Positions 7,190 to 52,190 of a stretch of 64,000 bases of DNA are shown one piece after another (within the stretch, counting starts at the first letter, position 1; each line of letters starts with the position of its first letter). The DNA comes from an uncultured delta proteobacterium (GTDB taxonomy: Bacteria; Desulfobacterota; Binatia; UBA9968), in the NCBI GenBank assembly GCA_963745035.1, contig CAVUVW010000027.1:192001-256000 (forward strand), in the 5' to 3' direction. The position numbers were made by a program, and so were the translations under genes. A model generated the notes under the pieces. It saw only the letters and a program-made list of their open reading frames with translations, made no database searches and had not been told where the DNA came from.

Positions 7190-8769
7190 ATGAAGCGAGA
7201 TCAGGCTACACACTCACAAACCCGCGGTGCTGCTCAGGAAACCTTAGTTTCCGCTATGCTCGATCCGGCATTTTACCCGAATCATCCGGAGGAAATTCTC
7301 CACAAGGAAACTCACATCTCACATATTTTTCTGGTGGGCGCTCTCGTTTACAAAATCAAAAAGCCGGTGCGCTTTCCGTTCTTAGATTTTTCGACGGCGG
7401 CGAAGCGACGTCACTTTCTCGATGCAGAACTGCGACTCAACCGCCGGCTGGCGCCGGCGGTCTATCTTGGCGTGGTGCCGATTTTTCAAGATCATGGAGG
7501 CTGGCGCCTCGATGGGGGCGACGAGCCGATCGAATATGCGCTGCTCATGCGCCGCTTGCCGGAAAAGCGCATGCTCGACTATTTGCTGGAAACCAAGCAA
7601 ACGAGCGCCGCGATGATGGAGCAGTTGGCGGACCGCTTGGCGGCGTTCCACCTTGGCGCGGAACGGGTGAAGAGAGGGGTCTCGGTCGATCACCTGCCGG
7701 CGATTGCGCACGAGTGGCACAAGAATGTTGCGGAGTTGCGGCCGCTTCTGGCAAATGGCAATGAAGGCGATCTCGATGGCATCGCGACAGCGGGGGATCA
7801 TTTTCTTCGGAGCCATGCGGCGCTCATCGCGCGACGGGCGGCGGATGGCTGGGTGCGAGATGTGCACGGCGATCTTCACGCTGAGCATATCTGTTTTGCG
7901 CCGGAGGGCATCCAGATTTTCGATTGCATCGAGTTCAGCGACGAGCTGCGCCGTTGCGATCTAGCTTCCGAGATCGCATTTCTATCGATGGATGTTTCCG
8001 TTCGGGGCGGCGAGCCGCTCATTCGGCCGTTTGTCGAGCGCTATCTCGGAAAGATCGACGATCCGGATATCCAGTCTTGCTGCCTTTTTACGAATGCTAC
8101 CGCGCTTTGGTGCGGGCCAAGGTCCATGCGCTCCGGCTGGGCACCTGGGGAAAGGAATCAACGCGCTACTTCGATTTCGCCAAGCGCTTCAAATGGAACC
8201 GATTTCAACCTTTTCTCGTGCTCGTAAGCGGATTCACCGGTAGCGGTAAGTCGACTCTCGCGCGCGCGCTGGGCGCGCGGCTCGGCATGGTGGTGATCAA
8301 TTCCGATGAAACGCGCAAGCGTATTGCTGGGAAGCAGGGAAGCGAAATTGTGCCGGTGAACACGGGCATCTATAGCCCGGCGATGACCGAGAAAACTTAC
8401 GAAACGATGGCGCTGGAAGCGGAAAGAGAAGTTCGCGCCGGGCGGGGCATGATTTTGGACGGAACTTTCGTGGCGCGCACGCAACGGGAAAAATTTATCC
8501 TGCTGGCACAGCAGTGCAAGATTCCCTTGCTGGTGATTCATTGCCGAGCATCGGAGGATGCGAGCGCGGAGCGGCTTCAACGCAGGGCCGCGGCCGGAGA
8601 GCACACTTCGGACGGACGCTGGGAAATTTATCTGGCTCAGAAAGCAGCGTACGAGGAGATGGATGAAATTCCCGCGGACTCTCGGCTCGAACTCTGCACC
8701 GAAGCGTCTTTGGAGAAACTTGCTGCGCAGGTGGAAGATTTTCTGGCGGCGCGGCTCGATTCCAAGTAG
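7190..8769 (+). CDS. aminoglycoside-phosphotransferase-like kinase fused to P-loop AAA_33 domain (COG2187/COG0645 type), one frameshift
   Basis: ETHISHIFL, YKIKKPV, ELRLNRRLAP, HGDLH and FDCIEF, then GFTGSGKST and SDETRK; frameshift near 8075. Confidence 0.85.
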
Positions 8770-8854: not shown

Positions 8855-9277
8855 TCAAGTGTCTTCGCTGCCGCGTACCGGACCGCGCATGGATTTTTTA
8901 TCGCTTTGATGGCGTTTGTCGGCAAGCAGGCGGAGCTTGGCGCGGCGTGAGCGCTGCCTCTTTTGCCGGCGAATTTTGGCGATGCGCCGGGCTTCTTCAC
9001 TGGCGACGCCTTTGATCGACGCCTCGATTTTGTCCAGCAAGAGCCGGCGGGCGATGAAACGATTGAGGCCCTGGGAGCGTTCTTTCTGGCAGCGTACGCG
9101 CAGCCCCGTGGGTCGATGGTGCAGCACGACGCAGCTCGACACTTTGTTGACGTTCTGACCGCCAGCTCCCGACGAGCGGATGAATTGCTCGTCGATGTCC
9201 TGCTCGCGAATGCCCATTGCGCGCATGCGCTCCAGCAGCAGGCTCTCTTTGTGCGATGAGACCGGAAAAAGAGCCAT
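8855..9277 (-). CDS. class I peptide release factor-like peptidyl-tRNA hydrolase (ArfB-like ribosome rescue factor)
   Basis: RSSGAGGQNVNK, CQKERSQGLNR and a basic C-terminal tail. Confidence 0.85.
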   Translation of the reverse strand: MALFPVSSHKESLLLERMRAMGIREQDIDEQFIRSSGAGGQNVNKVSSCVVLHHRPTGLRVRCQKERSQGLNRFIARRLLLDKIEASIKGVASEEARRIAKIRRQKRQRSRRAKLRLLADKRHQSDKKSMRGPVRGSEDT

Positions 9278-9706
9278 CGCGCTAGCTCAGCGATGGGCCG
9301 AGGGGCTCAGGGTCCTGGCCGCGTTGCCAAAGCAAACAAGCGAACAGCACAGCAGAAATTTGTTTCAACTTTTGCCTCCCAAAAACCATCGATCGCAAGA
9401 GCCAAACCTTTCGTCAGGGACTCTATACCGTTTCTATTCGCTCATGCTACCTGCCATAGACCGCAGTGTGAAGTAACGTTGTTACGATTTCTAAAAACTA
9501 TAATGGCCCGCGGCCGAACATCCGCTCATGACCTTGGTCTTGCGGTGCTCAGCGTATGCGTCAGCAATTTTGAACGCAAAACGAGGCATAATGAGGTGCC
9601 TCCCGGACTACGCTTGTTGCCTTGGACTCCGAACTGCTATGTTTGGAGTTCACCGTCTCGCTTCAACAGCTCGCTGTTTCAGCAGTTGGACGCGAGTAGA
9701 TTCCGT

Positions 9707-11344
9707 ATGGAAATTTTTGACGCTGAATTCTTTGTGCTGACCCTCGCCCTGGTGGGCGTTGTAATCATCATCGCGGCGCTACTCTCCGGCCTCATCGATA
9801 GCAGCGACCTCCCGCAAGTCGGCGTTTTTTTAGCGCTCGGCGCGATGCTCGGCCCGGCCGGCTTGGGACTGCTCGACGTGACTCTGGATTCGCCGATCCT
9901 TCGCGTCGTGGCTACCTTGAGTCTGGTTCTGGTCTTGTTCACGGATGCCGTCAGCCTGACCATCGCGGAAATGAGCCGCCATGGCGCGCTCGCCTTTCGT
10001 GTCTTGGGTCCCGGGACACTTCTTTCCGCAGCACTGGTGTCCCTGGCGGGATGGAAGCTGCTCGAGCTTCCTCTTCCGGCAGCGGCGATCCTGGGCGCAG
10101 CGCTCGCTTCGACCGACCCGGTGATGCTGCGCGGTTTGCTTCGACGACCGGGTCTTCCGGAACCAGTGCGCCTGGCGCTGCGGCTCGAAAGCGGCCTTAA
10201 CGACGTGGTTCTTCTGCCCGTCATTCTGGTAGCGATGTCATTTCTCGGTCGGGAAGCGTTTCCCACACCCACCGAGTGGGCGCGCGTCGGTCTCGACCTG
10301 TTTCTTTTGGGACCCGGCGCCGGAATCGCAGTGGGGCTGCTCGGAACCTCCGCGCTGGAAATGATCAGGCGTAAGACTGGAGTCCTGCGCGATTATGAAT
10401 CGATTTATTCACTGGGCATAGCCTTCACGGCTTACGCCGCCGCGGAAGCGGTTCACGGCAGCGGCTTTCTCGCCGCGTTCGCGGCCGGGTTGACCATCGC
10501 GGCCCTCGACGTCGAGCTTTGTGATTGTTTTCTCGAATACGGCCAAACCACTGCCGAGATGGCGCTGCTTTTTACCTTCGTGCTCTTCGGCGCCTCACTG
10601 ATCTGGGGTGGATTTACCGTGTTGAGCTGGCCGGTTGCTCTCTTCGCCCTGGTCGCGCTGCTGATCCGTCCGGTGGCATTTTTCATCTCCCTCGCCGGCA
10701 CCCGGTTGGACTTCCGCAGTCGCATGTTGATCGCCTGGTTTGGACCCCGCGGTCTCAGCTCGCTGCTCTTGATCCTCGTGCCCGTGTTCGCCGCCGTTCC
10801 CGGCACCGAGCCTTTGTTTTTCATCTGCTGCTTTTTCGTCCTGCTTTCCATCGCCCTGCACGGCGGTTCGCTGATGTTCCTTAAACGCAATGGATCTCGA
10901 GCCAGAGTGCCGGCGACCGCCGCGACCAATCTTGCCGGCAACGCCACGCCAGATCTGCCGGCGGATTCAACTTCAACAACGGGCACCAACCAAGGCGTCG
11001 ATCTCATCACGATCCCGGAGATGCGCGCTATCCAGCAATCCGGCGCGCCGAATCTCGTTCTCGATGTGCGCGCCGAACGCAGTCTCGCCGCCAGCGACCT
11101 GCTCGCGCAGGGGGCGGTCAGAGTTCCGCCAGATCGCCCGGTCGAGCGTCTCAAAGAGCTCGACGTACCGCGCCAGACCTGGCTCTTCGCCTTTTGTGCT
11201 TGACCCGACGAAGCGACAAGCGCCCGTGTGGCGCGAGAGCTTAAAAAAGCCGGATGGAGCAAAGCGCGCGCGCTGGTCGGCGGCTGGGAAGCCTGGCAAG
11301 CAGCCGGATTGCCGGTCGAGGCGAAGCCGATGCAGGCAATTTGA
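9707..11344 (+). CDS. NhaP/CPA1 cation:proton antiporter fused to C-terminal rhodanese domain; in-frame TGA at 11201-11203 probably selenocysteine
   Basis: LASTDP, LESGLND, SGFLAAF and WFGPRGLSS CPA1 motifs; rhodanese VLDVR...GAVR...FCA-TGA-PDEATSARVARELKKAGW...ALVGGWEAWQAAGLPVE continues in frame to the stop at 11342-11344. Confidence 0.8.
11204..11240 (+). promoter_or_regulatory. candidate bacterial SECIS hairpin
   Basis: Stem GCGCC (11220-11224)/GGCGC (11230-11234) with apical loop CGTGT starting 21 nt after the TGA; G then U near the start of the loop. Confidence 0.55.
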
Positions 11345-11516
11345 TGATTGCGACGTGGTCGTCATGGTGTCTACCAAATCTGGACAGAAGTATAGTTTTC
11401 AAAGCGCTTTGATTTTTTGAACGTCTCGAACGGGGCGAAGCTGTGAACGGCTTGAATGCAACCGTTCAGCAAATGTTTGCTCCTCGCTCCTTTCCTCCAC
11501 TCCTCCTGCGGCCGCG

Positions 11517-12545
11517 CTACTTCTCCAAGAGCGGTTTCATCCGCTCGAGCAGTTCTGCCGGCACAGTGCCGATCTCCCGTCCCAGAGCCTCGACCTCCTC
11601 GCCAGTCATTAAACTGGGCTCGAGCCCTTTGCTCTTGGCATCGGCGATGACATCAGGATCCTTGATCATTTTATTAAATCCGTCGCGCAGCGCTTTGAGG
11701 CGATCGGCGGGCATTCCCGGAGGGCCGAAAAACGGCCGGCCCATTTCGTCGGGGAGCACGAAAATTTTCGCGATCCGCCGGTGCAGGTCGCTGACTTTTT
11801 GCTTGTCCATCCACTCCCACACGGTGGGCACATTGGGCAGATTGGCATGACGCTTCTGTCCGCCCTGAGTGAGCACGCGGACAAAACCTGTCTTGGCCCA
11901 AGTGCGGCCCGGCTCGCTGCCGAAATAGGCCTGCACCGAGCCGCACCAACACTGCATCTCGCCACGCTCGATCGCCAGATTGGCATCGGCTGCGCCTTGA
12001 TAGCCCGGCACCATGGTCAATTTAAGGCCAAAGGCTTCCTGGAGAAGCCTGGGGAAATAGTAGGCCGCCGTGCCCAGCCCCGTTGCGGCGCACTTGGGGG
12101 GCTCAACGGCATTGCGCAGGTCCAGCAAAGTTTTGTAAGGAGTGTCGGCCCGGATATAGAAAATTCGATCGGTCTTCTCCGGGGAGCCGATCCAACTGTA
12201 CTTGAACCACTCGAACTTGATTTCGGGTTGGCCAGAGAGCTGCTGGATGTAGAGCCCGGGGCTCACCACGCCAAGGGTCAAGCCGTCCGGCTTGGCGACG
12301 CTGTAGATATAGTTTGCCGCGATCATCGAACCGCCGCCTGTCATGTTTTGCACCACGAAGGTCGGATTGCCCGCAACGTATTTACCCAGATACTGAGCGA
12401 TGATCCGCGCCCACACGTCGAACGCCCCGCCCGCGGTGAACCCGACGCGGATTGTTACAGTCTGGCCCTGGTAGAAAGGTGTCTGGGCCGCAAGATCGGA
12501 TTGCCAAAGCAAACAAGCGACCAGCGCCAACAGTAATTTTTTCAT
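11517..12545 (-). CDS. tripartite tricarboxylate transporter (Bug/TctC) substrate-binding protein
   Basis: Signal peptide; GFTAGGAFDVWAR, VQNMTGGGS, AKPDGLT and PGYQG motifs. Confidence 0.9.
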   Translation of the reverse strand: MKKLLLALVACLLWQSDLAAQTPFYQGQTVTIRVGFTAGGAFDVWARIIAQYLGKYVAGNPTFVVQNMTGGGSMIAANYIYSVAKPDGLTLGVVSPGLYIQQLSGQPEIKFEWFKYSWIGSPEKTDRIFYIRADTPYKTLLDLRNAVEPPKCAATGLGTAAYYFPRLLQEAFGLKLTMVPGYQGAADANLAIERGEMQCWCGSVQAYFGSEPGRTWAKTGFVRVLTQGGQKRHANLPNVPTVWEWMDKQKVSDLHRRIAKIFVLPDEMGRPFFGPPGMPADRLKALRDGFNKMIKDPDVIADAKSKGLEPSLMTGEEVEALGREIGTVPAELLERMKPLLEK

Positions 12546-12716
12546 CCTGCCCTCCAAAGGCCACCGATTCGAAGAATCATACCCGGGTCGGGAACTCTAT
12601 AGCCGTTTCTCTCAGCTCCCGCTACTGTTACATTGAAAGATGGACTCAGCAGCATGCGGATCCGTCAGGCGCATGCGCAGGTGTATAGAAGCAACTGAAA
12701 ACCATAGGCAAGACCC

Positions 12717-50680: not shown

Positions 50681-51106
50681 ATGGCTAACGCCAACAAGAA
50701 AATAGTTCAACCAAAAGACCTACCCAAGCGGGCGACGCATTCTCAAGTCGTAACCGTGACCGGCGGAGTGCTCGTTTTCATCGCCGGCATGACTTCGAGA
50801 AGCGAAAAAGACGCGGCGCCCGTCCACGCCGGCGACATGCGCGCACAGGTTCGTCAAATTTGCGAGAACCTCGCCCGGGCTTTGCGGTCGGTTGGCGGCG
50901 AATTCTCCGACATCGTAAAGACGACGATTTTCACTACCGACGTTGATGAGTTCCGCAATGCGAATGAGGTCCGTTACGAATACTTTCAATCAGACTACCC
51001 GACCGGCTCGCTCATTGGTGTGAAGCGTCTCGCTCATCCCGACCTCATGGTCGAAATCGAAGCGATGGCGGTCATCCCGCCTGATCGGTTCAAGCCTGTA
51101 GAGTAG
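50681..51106 (+). CDS. Rid family protein (close paralog of 49018-49440)
   Basis: IVQPKDLP, SQVV.VTGG, FIAGMTSRSE and RLAHPDLMVE shared with the paralog. Confidence 0.88.
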   Translation: MANANKKIVQPKDLPKRATHSQVVTVTGGVLVFIAGMTSRSEKDAAPVHAGDMRAQVRQICENLARALRSVGGEFSDIVKTTIFTTDVDEFRNANEVRYEYFQSDYPTGSLIGVKRLAHPDLMVEIEAMAVIPPDRFKPVE

Positions 51107-51155
51107 GGTGGTTCTTGAATCGGTTTGGGGTTTTGGCCGATTATCTCTTGTCGCA

Positions 51156-52190
51156 TTACTTCATTCCCAGAATCTTCGTGTACTCGCGTGTCAGGCGGTC
51201 GATCATCTCCGATTGGTTTTGCGCCATGTAGAGCACCTTTTTGCCCTGAACGTACTTGTTCGCGCGGGTGCCGGAAATGAAGGCTGAAGTGTGGCCGACG
51301 AACTCTTCCCAAATTTTCTGCGCCTCGGATGTCGTTAGAAACGCCGCAAAGAGATGGGCCGCCATTGGGTGGCGCGCGCCCTTGAGCACGCCGACGTGAT
51401 AGGCGGGCGAAACCACGGGCTGGATGTCGGCGAAGACGATGGGCGCTCCGGTTTTCTCGGCCGTGAAGATAAAGCTGTTCGTCAACGTGACCGCCAACGA
51501 TAATTCTCCCAGTAAAAGCCTGCTGTAAGTTTCTCCGAGCCGGCCGATGGCCGGAGCCTGCTGGGAAAGTGCCTTGATGTATTTGGTGGTCTCCTCTTCA
51601 CCCCACGCTGCGGCGAGCATGGCGAGGTGCGCCGGAGTCGCGTTCGTCACGCCCAGTTTTCCGCCTTTCCATTTCGGGTCGAGCAGGTCGTGCCAGCTCC
51701 GTGGCACATCGGCCGCCGGCAGAAGCTTCTTGTTGTAGGCCGGAAGCGTGAACTGGTTGGCGAAGGAAACGGTGCCGCTGTCGAAATTGATCACCTTGGG
51801 ATCAACGCCCAGAATGCGATAGTCGAAAGGCACGTGAACCTTTCTCAGCCACAACGTCGCATGATAGGTGTCCGGAAAGACGGCGACGTCGAAGTCAGTG
51901 GCTCCGCCGGTGGCCATCTGCGTGATGATACCGGCGAGATCTTTGTCCATGTTGGCCGAAGGCGAGAATTTGAATGTCACTGAAATACCGTGTTTGCGAT
52001 TGAATGCGGCATTGAGCCGTCGCGCGCCGCGTTCTTCCACCTGGGTGGGCGCATAGAATTCCAGCACGCCTTCCTTGTTGGCGGCGGCAATAACGTCTTT
52101 GACATCGGACTCGACGGCGGCAGAGCTTGCTTCCGGCAGGAGGCTTAGCAACAGAAATACGGTCAGAGCAATGGACTTCAACGAGTTCAT
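51156..52190 (-). CDS. ABC-type extracellular solute-binding protein (paralog of 49460-50482)
   Basis: Shared LEFYAP, PFDYR.LGV, GTVSFANQ and PAYHVGVLKG motifs. Confidence 0.85.
   Translation of the reverse strand: MNSLKSIALTVFLLLSLLPEASSAAVESDVKDVIAAANKEGVLEFYAPTQVEERGARRLNAAFNRKHGISVTFKFSPSANMDKDLAGIITQMATGGATDFDVAVFPDTYHATLWLRKVHVPFDYRILGVDPKVINFDSGTVSFANQFTLPAYNKKLLPAADVPRSWHDLLDPKWKGGKLGVTNATPAHLAMLAAAWGEEETTKYIKALSQQAPAIGRLGETYSRLLLGELSLAVTLTNSFIFTAEKTGAPIVFADIQPVVSPAYHVGVLKGARHPMAAHLFAAFLTTSEAQKIWEEFVGHTSAFISGTRANKYVQGKKVLYMAQNQSEMIDRLTREYTKILGMK

Follow-up and report, generated by a model that had tools for sequence, protein, structure and literature searches.

In a 64,000-nucleotide stretch of DNA from an uncultured delta proteobacterium of the Binatia (the window), the open reading frame of a NhaP-type cation/proton antiporter stops at a TGA codon in the middle of a rhodanese domain. 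This raises two questions: whether the TGA is a stop or a selenocysteine (Sec) codon, and, if it is read as Sec, what an ion exchanger would do with a selenium-bearing tail. A preliminary description, made from the letters of the window, had proposed an antiporter fused to a Sec-bearing rhodanese with a Cys-Ala-Sec motif, and had listed the checks on which that proposal would stand: the Sec machinery of the genome, TGA versus Cys in homologues, conservation of the frame beyond the TGA, and the reads at the codon. Each of these checks, run directly or in approximation, came out for a selenoprotein. We find that no other reading accounts for the sequence data nearly as well as Sec decoding, and that the gene very probably encodes a true selenoprotein in which UGA 11201–11203 is decoded as Sec. 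It is predicted to be an antiporter with a Sec-bearing tail domain, of a family that is widespread among soil bacteria.

Results

A single reading frame interrupted by TGA

The whole gene, comprising the NhaP/CPA1 antiporter, a linker and the rhodanese, occupies positions 9707–11344 of the plus strand, where all features of this gene described below lie, and would encode a 545-residue selenoprotein followed by a stop; this extent is drawn from the frame and from full-length orthologues with a single TGA. Re-reading the frame confirmed the reported interruption. A single frame runs from the ATG at 9707 through a segment ending in WLFAFCA to the TGA at 11201–11203, which falls inside the rhodanese domain, and continues through PDEATSARVARELKKAGWSKARALVGGWEAWQAAGLPVEAKPMQAI to a second TGA at 11342–11344, with 46 in-frame codons between the two. 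The second TGA is the true stop codon, and conservation of the orthologous proteins ends there. The ORF listing also contains an alternative in-frame ATG upstream at 9293. We prefer the start at 9707 because the orthologues begin with M-E-x-F, which fits that position.

The claim that standard gene callers would truncate such a gene is borne out by the databases. Among the best 120 database matches (clusters), 119 end in ...C-x just before the TGA, and these are all that reach this point; 31 of the 150 listed representatives at 50% identity also end at the TGA. The precomputed Pfam annotation of these records contains PF00999 only, which leaves no trace of the rhodanese domain in the databases. 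A domain search with 'longer' lengths returned only the same truncated antiporters and is uninformative on other architectures. Taken at face value, the common end point of gene calls and database records would favor a gene that encodes no selenoprotein, in which the TGA is a real stop of a truncated or decaying gene, a leaky codon that an ordinary tRNA sometimes reads through, or a sequencing error.

Conservation of the TGA and the selenocysteine machinery

Several lines of evidence assign the UGA at 11201–11203 as Sec499 instead. The genome contains all four of the genes that the preliminary description had wished to see: profile searches detected selA (523 bits), the wing domain of selB (76 bits) and selD (385 bits), the last with an in-frame TGA of its own, together with tRNA-Sec (selC; 76.7 bits, anticodon tca), and selA, selB, selD and tRNA-Sec all lie on contig C17. 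The TGA is retained in 8/8 orthologues of related genomes, in which the protein is conserved up to the common stop and not past it. Across 79 genome loci from Binatia, Acidobacteriota, Chloroflexota, Planctomycetota, Myxococcota, Armatimonadota and others, the site is TGA in 71 and TGC or TGT in the remaining eight, and ten additional Cys-form (CxC) fusions are found among the 50%-identity representatives. TGA thus aligns with Cys in homologues, and the Cys-form fusions read CACPNE, CTCPAE, CSCPDD and similar, in keeping with the CxCPxE loop that had been quoted for related rhodaneses. SelA was detected in 5/5 genomes with the Sec form versus 2/5 with the Cys form. Both the existence of Cys homologues and the co-occurrence of the Sec form with SelA count against a gene that encodes no selenoprotein.

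Past the TGA, the frame remains a conserved coding sequence. None of 71 distinct post-TGA stretches, from several phyla, contains a stop within 41 codons, and the entropies at their first, second and third codon positions are 0.77, 0.61 and 1.51, the third being the most variable. This persistence of the TGA and of at least 41 downstream codons with coding periodicity speaks against a decaying gene. Reassignment of TGA in the genetic code was rejected because the gene itself terminates with TGA.

A base-call error at 11201–11203 was addressed in approximation, with contigs from independent runs: no alternative letter is listed there in contigs of two DNA and two RNA-library runs, in a variant table that omits 26 less-supported differences. 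Among the RNA-library contigs, none extends 31 letters or more beyond the TGA in both directions. The reading as a sequencing error was rejected, given the lack of a variant in the four runs and the conservation of the TGA across phyla. The RNA-library contigs cover 11012–11380 and do not prove transcription.

A conserved hairpin downstream of the TGA

A bSECIS-like hairpin occupies 11220–11234, with GCGCC at 11220–11224, the loop CGTGT (CGUGU) at 11225–11229 and GGCGC at 11230–11234. The preliminary description had placed it about 17 nt past the TGA; the measured spacing is 16 nt. Within the bounds of the bSECISearch model, a bSECIS is a stem-loop shortly 3′ of the UGA with a G in the apical loop. 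The hairpin fits this description, as it has a 5-bp stem 16 nt past the UGA and a G in its CGUGU apical loop.

The proposal that this is a conserved stem-loop for Sec insertion holds up on comparison. The hairpin is kept in 70/70 sequences; its stem is paired in 350/350 cells, with double-sided, compensatory changes in three of the five pairs and no pair broken, a pattern that again tells against a plain stop codon. None of 500 shuffles reached the observed hairpin score, and slid controls pair in only 28–46%. Third codon positions are frozen at the hairpin (entropy 0.44 versus 1.51 further downstream). In the Cys forms the hairpin is largely missing, with only one to five of the five stem pairs present.

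Two results lean the other way, toward a gene that encodes no selenoprotein. Single-sequence folding of an 81-nt stretch gave an energy no better than that of shuffles (z = 0.20; 113/200 fold at least as well), so the significance of the hairpin comes only from comparison with other sequences. An Rfam search of the hairpin region at E ≤ 10 found no family match, the sole match being a chance miRNA. A lower SECIS helix pairing columns 9–13 with 40–44 is not claimed, as pairing occurs in only 74% of cells. The hairpin shares no obvious motif with that of selD in this genome.

The antiporter domain

The transmembrane domain (residues 23–391; 9773–10879), with about 13 predicted helices, is assigned to CPA1 (NhaP-type) by its Pfam match to Na_H_Exchanger (PF00999, residues 23–391, 127.9 bits) and by the 13-helix NhaP fold of its predicted model. 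PaNhaP (4cza) is matched by phmmer at E 4.6e-10, and the AF2 model (pLDDT 84.4) matches MjNhaP1 and PaNhaP in Foldseek at TMt 0.71–0.76.

The ion site can be followed residue by residue. Thr136-Asp137 (10112–10117) forms the 'TD' motif of the unwound helix and aligns to Thr129/Asp130 in PaNhaP GATDP; in 42 sequences D137 never varies and T136 reaches at least 90% conservation. Glu161-Ser162-Gly-Leu-Asn165-Asp166 (10187–10204), the 'ND' motif of electroneutral CPA1 exchangers, aligns to PaNhaP ESIFND, with Glu154, Ser155, Asn158 and Asp159 corresponding to E161, S162, N165 and D166; E161, G163, N165 and D166 are invariant in the same 42 sequences. When the 4cza alignment is read against the available excerpt of the PaNhaP paper (PMC4381880), E73 corresponds to D80, T129/D130 to T136/D137 and R337 to R348. 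By this alignment, the predicted transporter core retains all ion-binding residues of PaNhaP: TD, ND, the Ser, the Glu/Arg pair and the acidic residue of H3.

A further motif sets this antiporter apart. Cys272-Asp273-Cys274 (10520–10528), within ELCDCFLEYG, lies in a predicted loop capping the N-terminus of helix 10, which begins at residue 273 in the AF2 model. C272 and C274 are both retained in 42/42 sequences, and a pattern search among representatives did not find the motif in NhaP homologues of 400–430 residues that have no rhodanese. From the topology of PaNhaP and the K/R-rich loops we infer that this loop is on the cytoplasmic side; the K/R counts were taken from a crude hydropathy script, whose overlapping segments were not used. 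The archaeal CPA1 Na+/H+ antiporters PaNhaP and MjNhaP1 (PDB 4cza/4cz8/4czb; excerpt of PMC4381880) share with the present protein the 13-helix fold and every ion-site residue, among them both motifs (TD and ND) and the Glu/Arg pair. They are only about 20% identical to it in sequence, and they lack a C-terminal domain, a Cys-Asp-Cys loop ahead of helix 10 and selenocysteine.

The linker and the rhodanese domain

The antiporter is followed by a linker of about 35 residues (395–429; 10889–10993) that is predicted to be disordered (pLDDT < 50) and varies in length among orthologues. The C-terminal rhodanese domain comprises residues 430–545 (10994–11341). Pfam Rhodanese (PF00581) matches residues 441–533 at 23.6 bits, against a cut-off of 22.2; the match spans the TGA and is reached with read-through only, and a frame ending at the TGA would leave the domain incomplete. 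Its AF2 model has a pLDDT of 95.2 and Foldseek TM values of about 0.7 to 6mxv, 3tp9, Alr3790 and GlpE.

The Sec lies in a Cys-Ala-Sec motif that follows a hydrophobic strand, F-A-F-C-A-U here and [FYL]-C-[ATGL]-U in orthologues. The partner cysteine, Cys497 (11195–11197), is at the end of the strand 492–496 and is invariant in 42/42 sequences; in the AF2 secondary structure the strand ends at 496 and a helix begins at 503, leaving U499 within the loop. C497 and U499 are both candidates for the canonical catalytic position, which is the first of the active-site loop and on which two HMMER alignments to 6mxv differ. Counting the antiporter loop, four Cys/Sec positions are invariant: C272, C274, C497 and U499.

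The closest profile is NF041203 (rhodanese_LYCAU), which matches residues 432–540 at 81.5 bits over profile positions 21–126 of 126, below its equivalog cut-off of 115 bits (78.2 bits in a six-frame genome search). NF041203 has the rhodanese fold and Cys-Ala-Sec at the same place, but the family it represents is a stand-alone protein of about 126 residues, whereas the domain here is the C-terminus of a 13-helix antiporter and is not an equivalog member. According to the available part of a review (PMC13188914), the 'form 3' rhodanese-like selenoprotein with a CxU motif was first predicted by Zhang & Gladyshev in 2005.

Related fusions and novelty of the architecture

The same genome contains a second fusion, a DedA/VTT-rhodanese with the motif LYCSU (G000:C10, L046:1468-2418, minus strand). 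Its rhodanese is the same CxU module (83.6 bits to NF041203), and its UGA, 16-nt spacer and GCGCC/GGCGC hairpin are identical to those of the antiporter gene; its membrane partner is VTT/DedA, not CPA1, and the two rhodanese domains are only about 31% identical. TsoB (NF045694, 'form 5'), as given in the accessible portion of PMC13188914, is a precedent for a Sec-bearing rhodanese on a membrane protein (rhodanese/DsbD fusion-like), but its UxxxxU motif and its membrane partner differ from those of the antiporter fusion, and the NF045694 model had no match to the antiporter-rhodanese protein at E ≤ 0.01. Other Sec-containing transporter proteins in the same portion of the review are precedents for Sec in transporter systems, and that text has no CPA, NhaP or antiporter entry.

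A literature search, in which some papers were judged by title and abstract only, found no description of a CxU rhodanese fused to a canonical CPA1/NhaP antiporter, and no paper combining 'rhodanese' with 'NhaP' or 'Binatia' with 'selenocysteine'. The preliminary description had not recognised the fusion as a characterised architecture; to this we add that the CxU Sec-rhodanese module was already catalogued (NF041203, 'form 3'). Only the fusion looks new, the module being a known kind of selenoprotein.

Gene neighborhood

Clustering of the neighborhoods of 80 loci revealed no conserved neighbor gene. The large clusters are mostly antisense ORFs over the gene itself; the true neighbors, Peptidase_S58 in 12 loci and an acyltransferase in 11, reflect synteny within Pyrinomonadaceae only. 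Neither metal-resistance genes nor genes of sulfur or selenium metabolism are conserved near the gene in these loci.

Discussion

A possible redox sensor tethered to an ion exchanger

What might the Sec-bearing tail do? As a whole, our best explanation, a Sec-containing antiporter-rhodanese whose sensor domain gates cation/proton exchange, has in our estimate an even chance of being right. In the mechanism that we envisage, SelB and tRNA-Sec would decode the UGA as Sec, directed by the hairpin 16 nt downstream within the coding sequence, and the disordered linker of about 35 residues would tether a single-domain cytoplasmic rhodanese, with an active-site loop of Cys497-Ala-Sec499, to the 13-helix antiporter. 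The rhodanese would act as a tethered sensor rather than as a substrate-handling enzyme: its Cys-x-Sec pair may toggle between selenol/thiol and selenenylsulfide (or persulfide) upon encounter with oxidants, sulfane sulfur or electrophiles, and the Cys-Asp-Cys loop, predicted to lie where the cytoplasmic funnel opens, may be its partner in exchange. This switch would open or close ordinary Na+(K+)/H+ exchange, by analogy with the C-terminal control of KefC, SOS1, NHE and SLC9C1. Under selenium scarcity, termination at the UGA would leave a 498-residue antiporter with a broken sensor. That the rhodanese is a cytoplasmic redox or sulfane-sulfur sensor gating ordinary exchange, perhaps with the Cys-Asp-Cys loop, is a tentative assignment to which we give a little less than an even chance.

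KefC, for its part, is gated by glutathione adducts. It resembles the protein proposed here in that a cytoplasmic domain at the C-terminus of a CPA exchanger responds to thiol chemistry and regulates the passage of ions, but it belongs to a different CPA branch (a CPA2 K+/H+ exchanger; PDB 8bxg and 8by2 among the fold matches), its sensor is a glutathione-binding KTN/RCK domain and not a rhodanese, and it has no Sec; the likeness is one of mechanism, not of family membership. In Foldseek the nearest solved folds after NhaP are KefC with GSH, auto-inhibited SOS1, cAMP-bound SLC9C1 and NHE1-CHP1, which by their PDB titles are CPA exchangers controlled by cytoplasmic domains. We infer a regulatory role from these fold neighbors, the kept PaNhaP ligands, the reuse of the module on DedA, the absence of a conserved neighbor gene and the disordered linker. 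Since all alkali-cation ligands of PaNhaP are kept, the alignment also favors the 'thiol-gated ion flux' of the preliminary description over its other suggestion, export of a chalcogen or metalloid species.

The likeliest rival accepts the selenoprotein and supposes that both the Cys-x-Sec rhodanese and the Cys-Asp-Cys loop serve to bind or transfer a thiophilic cation or metalloid, such as Cu+, Ag+, Tl+, Hg2+ or As(III), the exchanger being a soft-metal/proton antiporter or metal-gated. CxC-type motifs are classic soft-metal ligands, and the four invariant Cys/Sec residues form two of them, which counts against a sensor. ELCDCF also bears what we take to be a resemblance to the ELCVCDL metal box of ArsR, and the loop U-P-[DN]-E-A-T-S is acidic and would suit cations better than oxyanions. 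PaNhaP transports Tl+ (excerpt of PMC4381880). Against this, the ion site consists of the hard ligands Asp, Glu and Ser, identical to those of alkali-cation NhaP proteins, metal-resistance genes are not conserved next to the gene in 80 loci, and the rhodanese module is also found on a DedA/VTT protein. We consider a soft-metal role unlikely, at perhaps one chance in five.

Somewhat less probable still is a catalytic rhodanese, a sulfur or selenium transferase or reductase acting on a species carried by, or reaching, the membrane, such as thiosulfate, persulfide or selenite, as in transporter-plus-sulfurtransferase pairs. In the model, neither the rhodanese fold nor the active-site loop is disrupted, which fits catalysis as well as sensing, and the nearest family, NF041203, is named a rhodanese-related (seleno)protein. 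E. coli YgaP is membrane-anchored, and DedA has been linked to selenite uptake. By its PDB titles, YgaP is also a rhodanese whose solved domain is S-sulfhydrated. On the other side, the active-site loop of sulfurtransferases has the motif CRxGx[R/T], whereas the loop here lacks such basic residues; the fully conserved CPA1 ion-site residues suit Na+, K+ and H+ but not anions, and no genes of sulfur or selenium metabolism accompany the gene in the 80 loci. The weakest rival, that the gene encodes no selenoprotein, is highly improbable and already close to refuted by the comparative evidence above.

Implications

Returning to the sensor reading, its most specific form is a selenium-dependent, redox-switched antiporter family in several phyla of soil bacteria, in which a reversible Cys-x-Sec selenenylsulfide, formed within the pair or with the Cys-Asp-Cys loop, would gate a canonical NhaP antiporter; this we regard as possible but doubtful. 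The truncation described here is an error that many public protein records share. Recognizing the family would add a membrane transporter to the prokaryotic selenoproteome, extend the use of Sec to abundant soil lineages (Acidobacteriota, Chloroflexota and Binatia), and provide cultured carriers (Thermosporothrix hazakensis ATCC BAA-1881, Dictyobacter alpinus Uno16 and Acidobacteriaceae bacterium KBS 96) in which to ask why selenium should be spent on an ion exchanger's tail. If the gating is true, pH and cation homeostasis would be tied to the selenium and redox state of the cell. If the redox-switch reading is true, selenocysteine would be known for the first time in a secondary transporter, and, given the copy on DedA, the CxU rhodanese would be a portable 'selenium switch' for membrane proteins.

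Gene layout and the in-frame TGA

The antiporter–rhodanese frame opens with an ATG at position 9707 of the window and runs on the forward strand through a hydrophobic multi-helix part and a linker into a rhodanese domain, whose first two thirds close with ...RQTWLFAFCA. An in-frame TGA follows directly (11201–11203, forward strand), beyond which the same frame continues for 46 codons, PDEATSARVARELKKAGWSKARALVGGWEAWQAAGLPVEAKPMQAI, up to a second TGA that is the gene's terminator (11342–11344, forward strand). Because the gene itself terminates with TGA, this codon is not reassigned in the code. Pfam places Na_H_Exchanger at residues 23–391 (127.9 bits) and Rhodanese at residues 441–533 (23.6 bits; threshold 22.2), the latter match crossing the TGA. 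The preliminary description was accurate in reporting a TGA inside the rhodanese, an open frame of 46 codons beyond it and a hairpin downstream; the stem GCGCC/GGCGC and loop CGTGT are present (11220–11234, forward strand), and only the spacing differs, at 16 nt instead of about 17. Upstream lie an AAA_33 kinase-like ORF (7924–8769, forward strand) and a small protein that has an RF-1 domain and a GGQ motif (ArfB-like, 84 bits; 8855–9277, reverse strand), and downstream a TctC/Bug-family receptor (11517–12557, reverse strand); none of the three is kept beside orthologues of the gene.

Part of the stretch is present in 20 of the 24 public runs listed. Contigs from four soil and rhizosphere runs, two of DNA and two of RNA libraries, were aligned to the region; they cover the site, and their better-supported differences, 26 weaker ones aside, include no alternative letter at 11201–11203. 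In these four runs depth is several-fold higher over just 11201–11237, where many contigs of other genes match the UGA-plus-hairpin segment only. Their loose ends read ...TAC TG[CT] [AG]CC ahead of the TGA, that is Y-C-x, so many other soil Y-C-x-U genes carry the same UGA–hairpin element.

Evidence for selenocysteine decoding

The window's genome (7.4 Mb, 28 contigs, 92.6% complete) contains the Sec genes that the preliminary description had suggested looking for: SelA (523 bits), the SelB wing domain (76 bits), SelD (385 bits, with one in-frame TGA in a G-U-A context) and a tRNA-Sec (76.7 bits; ARAGORN anticodon tca) are all encoded on contig C17. selA, selB and selD adjoin each other (C17:315468–319742), and the tRNA-Sec gene lies about 52 kb away (C17:371273–371363). 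SelA was detected in 5/5 genomes with the Sec form of the gene and in 2/5 with the Cys form; the three Cys-form genomes lacking a match may be incomplete.

Folded as a single sequence, the 81-nt stretch was not more stable than its dinucleotide shuffles (z = 0.20), and an Rfam search of the hairpin region matched no family. Since the hairpin is unremarkable alone, the meaning of the TGA frame had to come from comparative data. Among 61 related genomes, counting full and partial orthologues that cover the site, all eight orthologues including the window's (59–100% identity) have exactly one TGA, at the site, and their protein conservation extends to the shared stop and is gone beyond it. Scanning a single genome for each species gave 80 loci, of which one (L111, at a contig end) does not cover the site; the codon is TGA in 71 of the remaining 79 and TGC or TGT in eight, with the downstream frame conserved, which answers the question of whether the TGA aligns with Cys in homologues. 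The first 41 post-TGA codons contain no stop in 71 distinct stretches, and over codons 12–41 the first, second and third codon positions have mean entropies of 0.77, 0.61 and 1.51, as expected if the region is translated and under purifying selection.

Across 70 distinct 60-nt stretches, each beginning at the UGA, all 350 cells of the five hairpin pairs hold standard pairs. Both sides change in three of these pairs (GCGUC/GACGC, GUACC/GGUAC, GUGCC/GGUAC), and the remaining pairs vary only to G-U. None of 500 shuffles reached the score of the tested structure, the hairpin plus a weaker lower helix, and sliding the partner lowers its pairing to 28–46%; this structure was derived from the same sequences, a bias in its favour. 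The lower helix, paired in 74% of cells, was dropped. The six hairpin codons are almost frozen at their third positions (entropy 0.44), and the two codons directly before the stem (GCN, ACN) are free to vary there (1.85 and 1.59). The eight Cys forms pair at 2, 2, 5, 3, 4, 2, 4 and 1 of the five positions. The central proposal of a selenoprotein antiporter–rhodanese is borne out by the Sec machinery, the TGA conservation and the hairpin covariation, and we are highly confident that Sec is decoded under SelB direction at a coding-region hairpin.

Antiporter and rhodanese domains

By phmmer matches to the archaeal antiporters PaNhaP and MjNhaP1, and by an AF2 model (pLDDT 84.4) that aligns to them at TMt 0.71–0.76, the membrane part is predicted to be a canonical CPA1 exchanger. 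The PaNhaP ion site comprises Glu73, Thr129, Asp130, Glu154, Ser155, Asn158, Asp159 and Arg337 (in the text of PMC4381880); all are represented here, in order by D80, T136, D137, E161, S162, N165, D166 and R348, and are invariant or almost so in 42 sequences. The PaNhaP C-terminus is cytoplasmic (same text), in agreement with the K/R-rich loops, and the rhodanese domain and the helix 9–10 loop are therefore predicted to be cytoplasmic. An invariant Cys272-Asp-Cys274 motif ('ELCDCFLEYG') lies in this loop where it caps helix 10, the helix that lines the cytoplasmic funnel in PaNhaP; a pattern search did not detect the motif among the rhodanese-less 400–430-residue NhaP homologues of a representative list. 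Besides 272 and 274, the family has just two invariant Cys/Sec positions, 497 and 499, making four in all.

The tail is modelled as one rhodanese domain (AF2 pLDDT 95.2; Foldseek TM about 0.7 to 6mxv, 3tp9, Alr3790, GlpE, TSTD1 and YgaP), and a disordered linker (residues 395–429) connects it with the membrane part. In the model, strand 492–496 is capped by C497, the loop consists of A498, U499, P, D and E, and a helix begins at 503. Two HMMER alignments to 6mxv set U499 and C497, respectively, on the catalytic Cys. Another rhodanese of this genome reads L-Y-U-A-C, and this reversed order would fit C497/U499 as a redox couple.

The best NCBIfam rhodanese match is NF041203, 'rhodanese_LYCAU, rhodanese-related (seleno)protein' (81.5 bits, profile positions 21–126, under the 115-bit cut-off). 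The 2026 selenoproteome review lists the CxU type as 'Rhodanese-like form 3, CxU' and attributes it to Zhang & Gladyshev 2005; its main text does not mention antiporter, exchanger, sodium, DedA or PF00999 (PMC13188914), nor do the main texts of a 2022 review and BSepDB mention antiporter or exchanger. The fusion, which the preliminary description did not recognise as characterised, is not named by these words in the main texts and may already be counted under 'form 3'; its Sec module is known, and we read the protein as a known Sec module in a probably new architecture.

Related modules and distribution

A second candidate membrane selenoprotein in the same genome is a DedA/VTT (PF09335)–rhodanese (contig C10, about 50840–51790, reverse strand; L046:1468–2418 in the extracted locus), which reads VVLYCS-TGA-PNEATSARVA, reaches 83.6 bits with NF041203 and carries a UGA, 16-nt spacer and GCGCC/GGCGC hairpin identical to those of the antiporter gene. 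Many same-genus genomes contain comparable open frames, about 380 residues long and with a single TGA. Two copies of its 3' end (TGA, hairpin, PNEATSARVALLLRAK...; C10:49866 and C10:21988, reverse strand), one of them without an upstream rhodanese, look like partial duplications or remnants. A TGA interrupts three further rhodanese-like frames. One reads VVLY-TGA-ACPHH, in UxC order, behind a hydrophobic N-terminus that is possibly a signal peptide (C15:305469–305759, forward strand). The second has YCHDYQ-TGA ahead of a CBS-like region (C13:1705614–1705781, forward strand), and the third reads IVFT-TGA-GTGASS (C13:903298–903540, reverse strand). The genome may thus encode several Sec-rhodaneses.

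Hosts of the Sec form span Binatia, Planctomycetota, Myxococcota, Armatimonadota, Verrucomicrobiota, Acidobacteriota (Pyrinomonadaceae, Bryobacteraceae, Acidobacteriaceae KBS 96) and Chloroflexota, including the cultured Thermosporothrix hazakensis and Dictyobacter alpinus. A quick maximum-likelihood tree with 72 Sec and 8 Cys rows (80 in all) nests the Cys forms among Sec forms in at least three places; as the tree is midpoint-rooted, we claim no direction of change. The gene is found in 7 of 30 other genomes of the window's genus and, as contig-end N-terminal pieces, in two genomes from two other genera of the family; to these it is restricted among the genomes examined of its phylum, 150 others having none (E ≤ 1e-60). 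The gene tree mixes phyla, with Binatia-labelled records beside Udaeobacter, Eisenbacteria and Myxococcota labels, which together with the 0/150 count suggests horizontal transfer or mis-binned contigs.

Proposed function

We tentatively propose that the tail regulates cation/proton exchange. This reading is favoured because the alkali-cation site is intact, because no functional neighbours are conserved, because the patchy occurrence points to a self-contained, transferable unit, and because the same module, with an identical UGA–spacer–hairpin, sits on the unrelated DedA/VTT protein. KefC is gated by GSH. The closest solved CPA exchangers, KefC with GSH, SOS1, SLC9C1 and NHE1, are under the control of cytoplasmic domains at their C-termini (PDB titles), which also favours regulation. 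Handling of a soft metal or metalloid would give both CxC-type motifs a role, and is unlikely beside an intact alkali-cation site. A catalytic, transport-coupled role in sulfur or selenium transfer is doubtful in a gene with no conserved functional neighbours. That there is no selenoprotein at all, as the single-sequence fold alone might allow, is very improbable given the TGA conservation and covariation.

The gene is mis-annotated throughout public databases. Gene callers truncate the protein, as had been anticipated: 119 of the best 120 90%-identity clusters terminate at ...C-x, before the TGA, and among 150 50%-identity representatives listed, 31 end exactly there, ten are CxC fusions and one is CxT. 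If the tail is regulatory, a tethered Cys-x-Sec sensor would control a Na+(K+)/H+ exchanger that is ordinary in other respects, perhaps via thiol–selenol exchange with the Cys-Asp-Cys loop, a putative contact.
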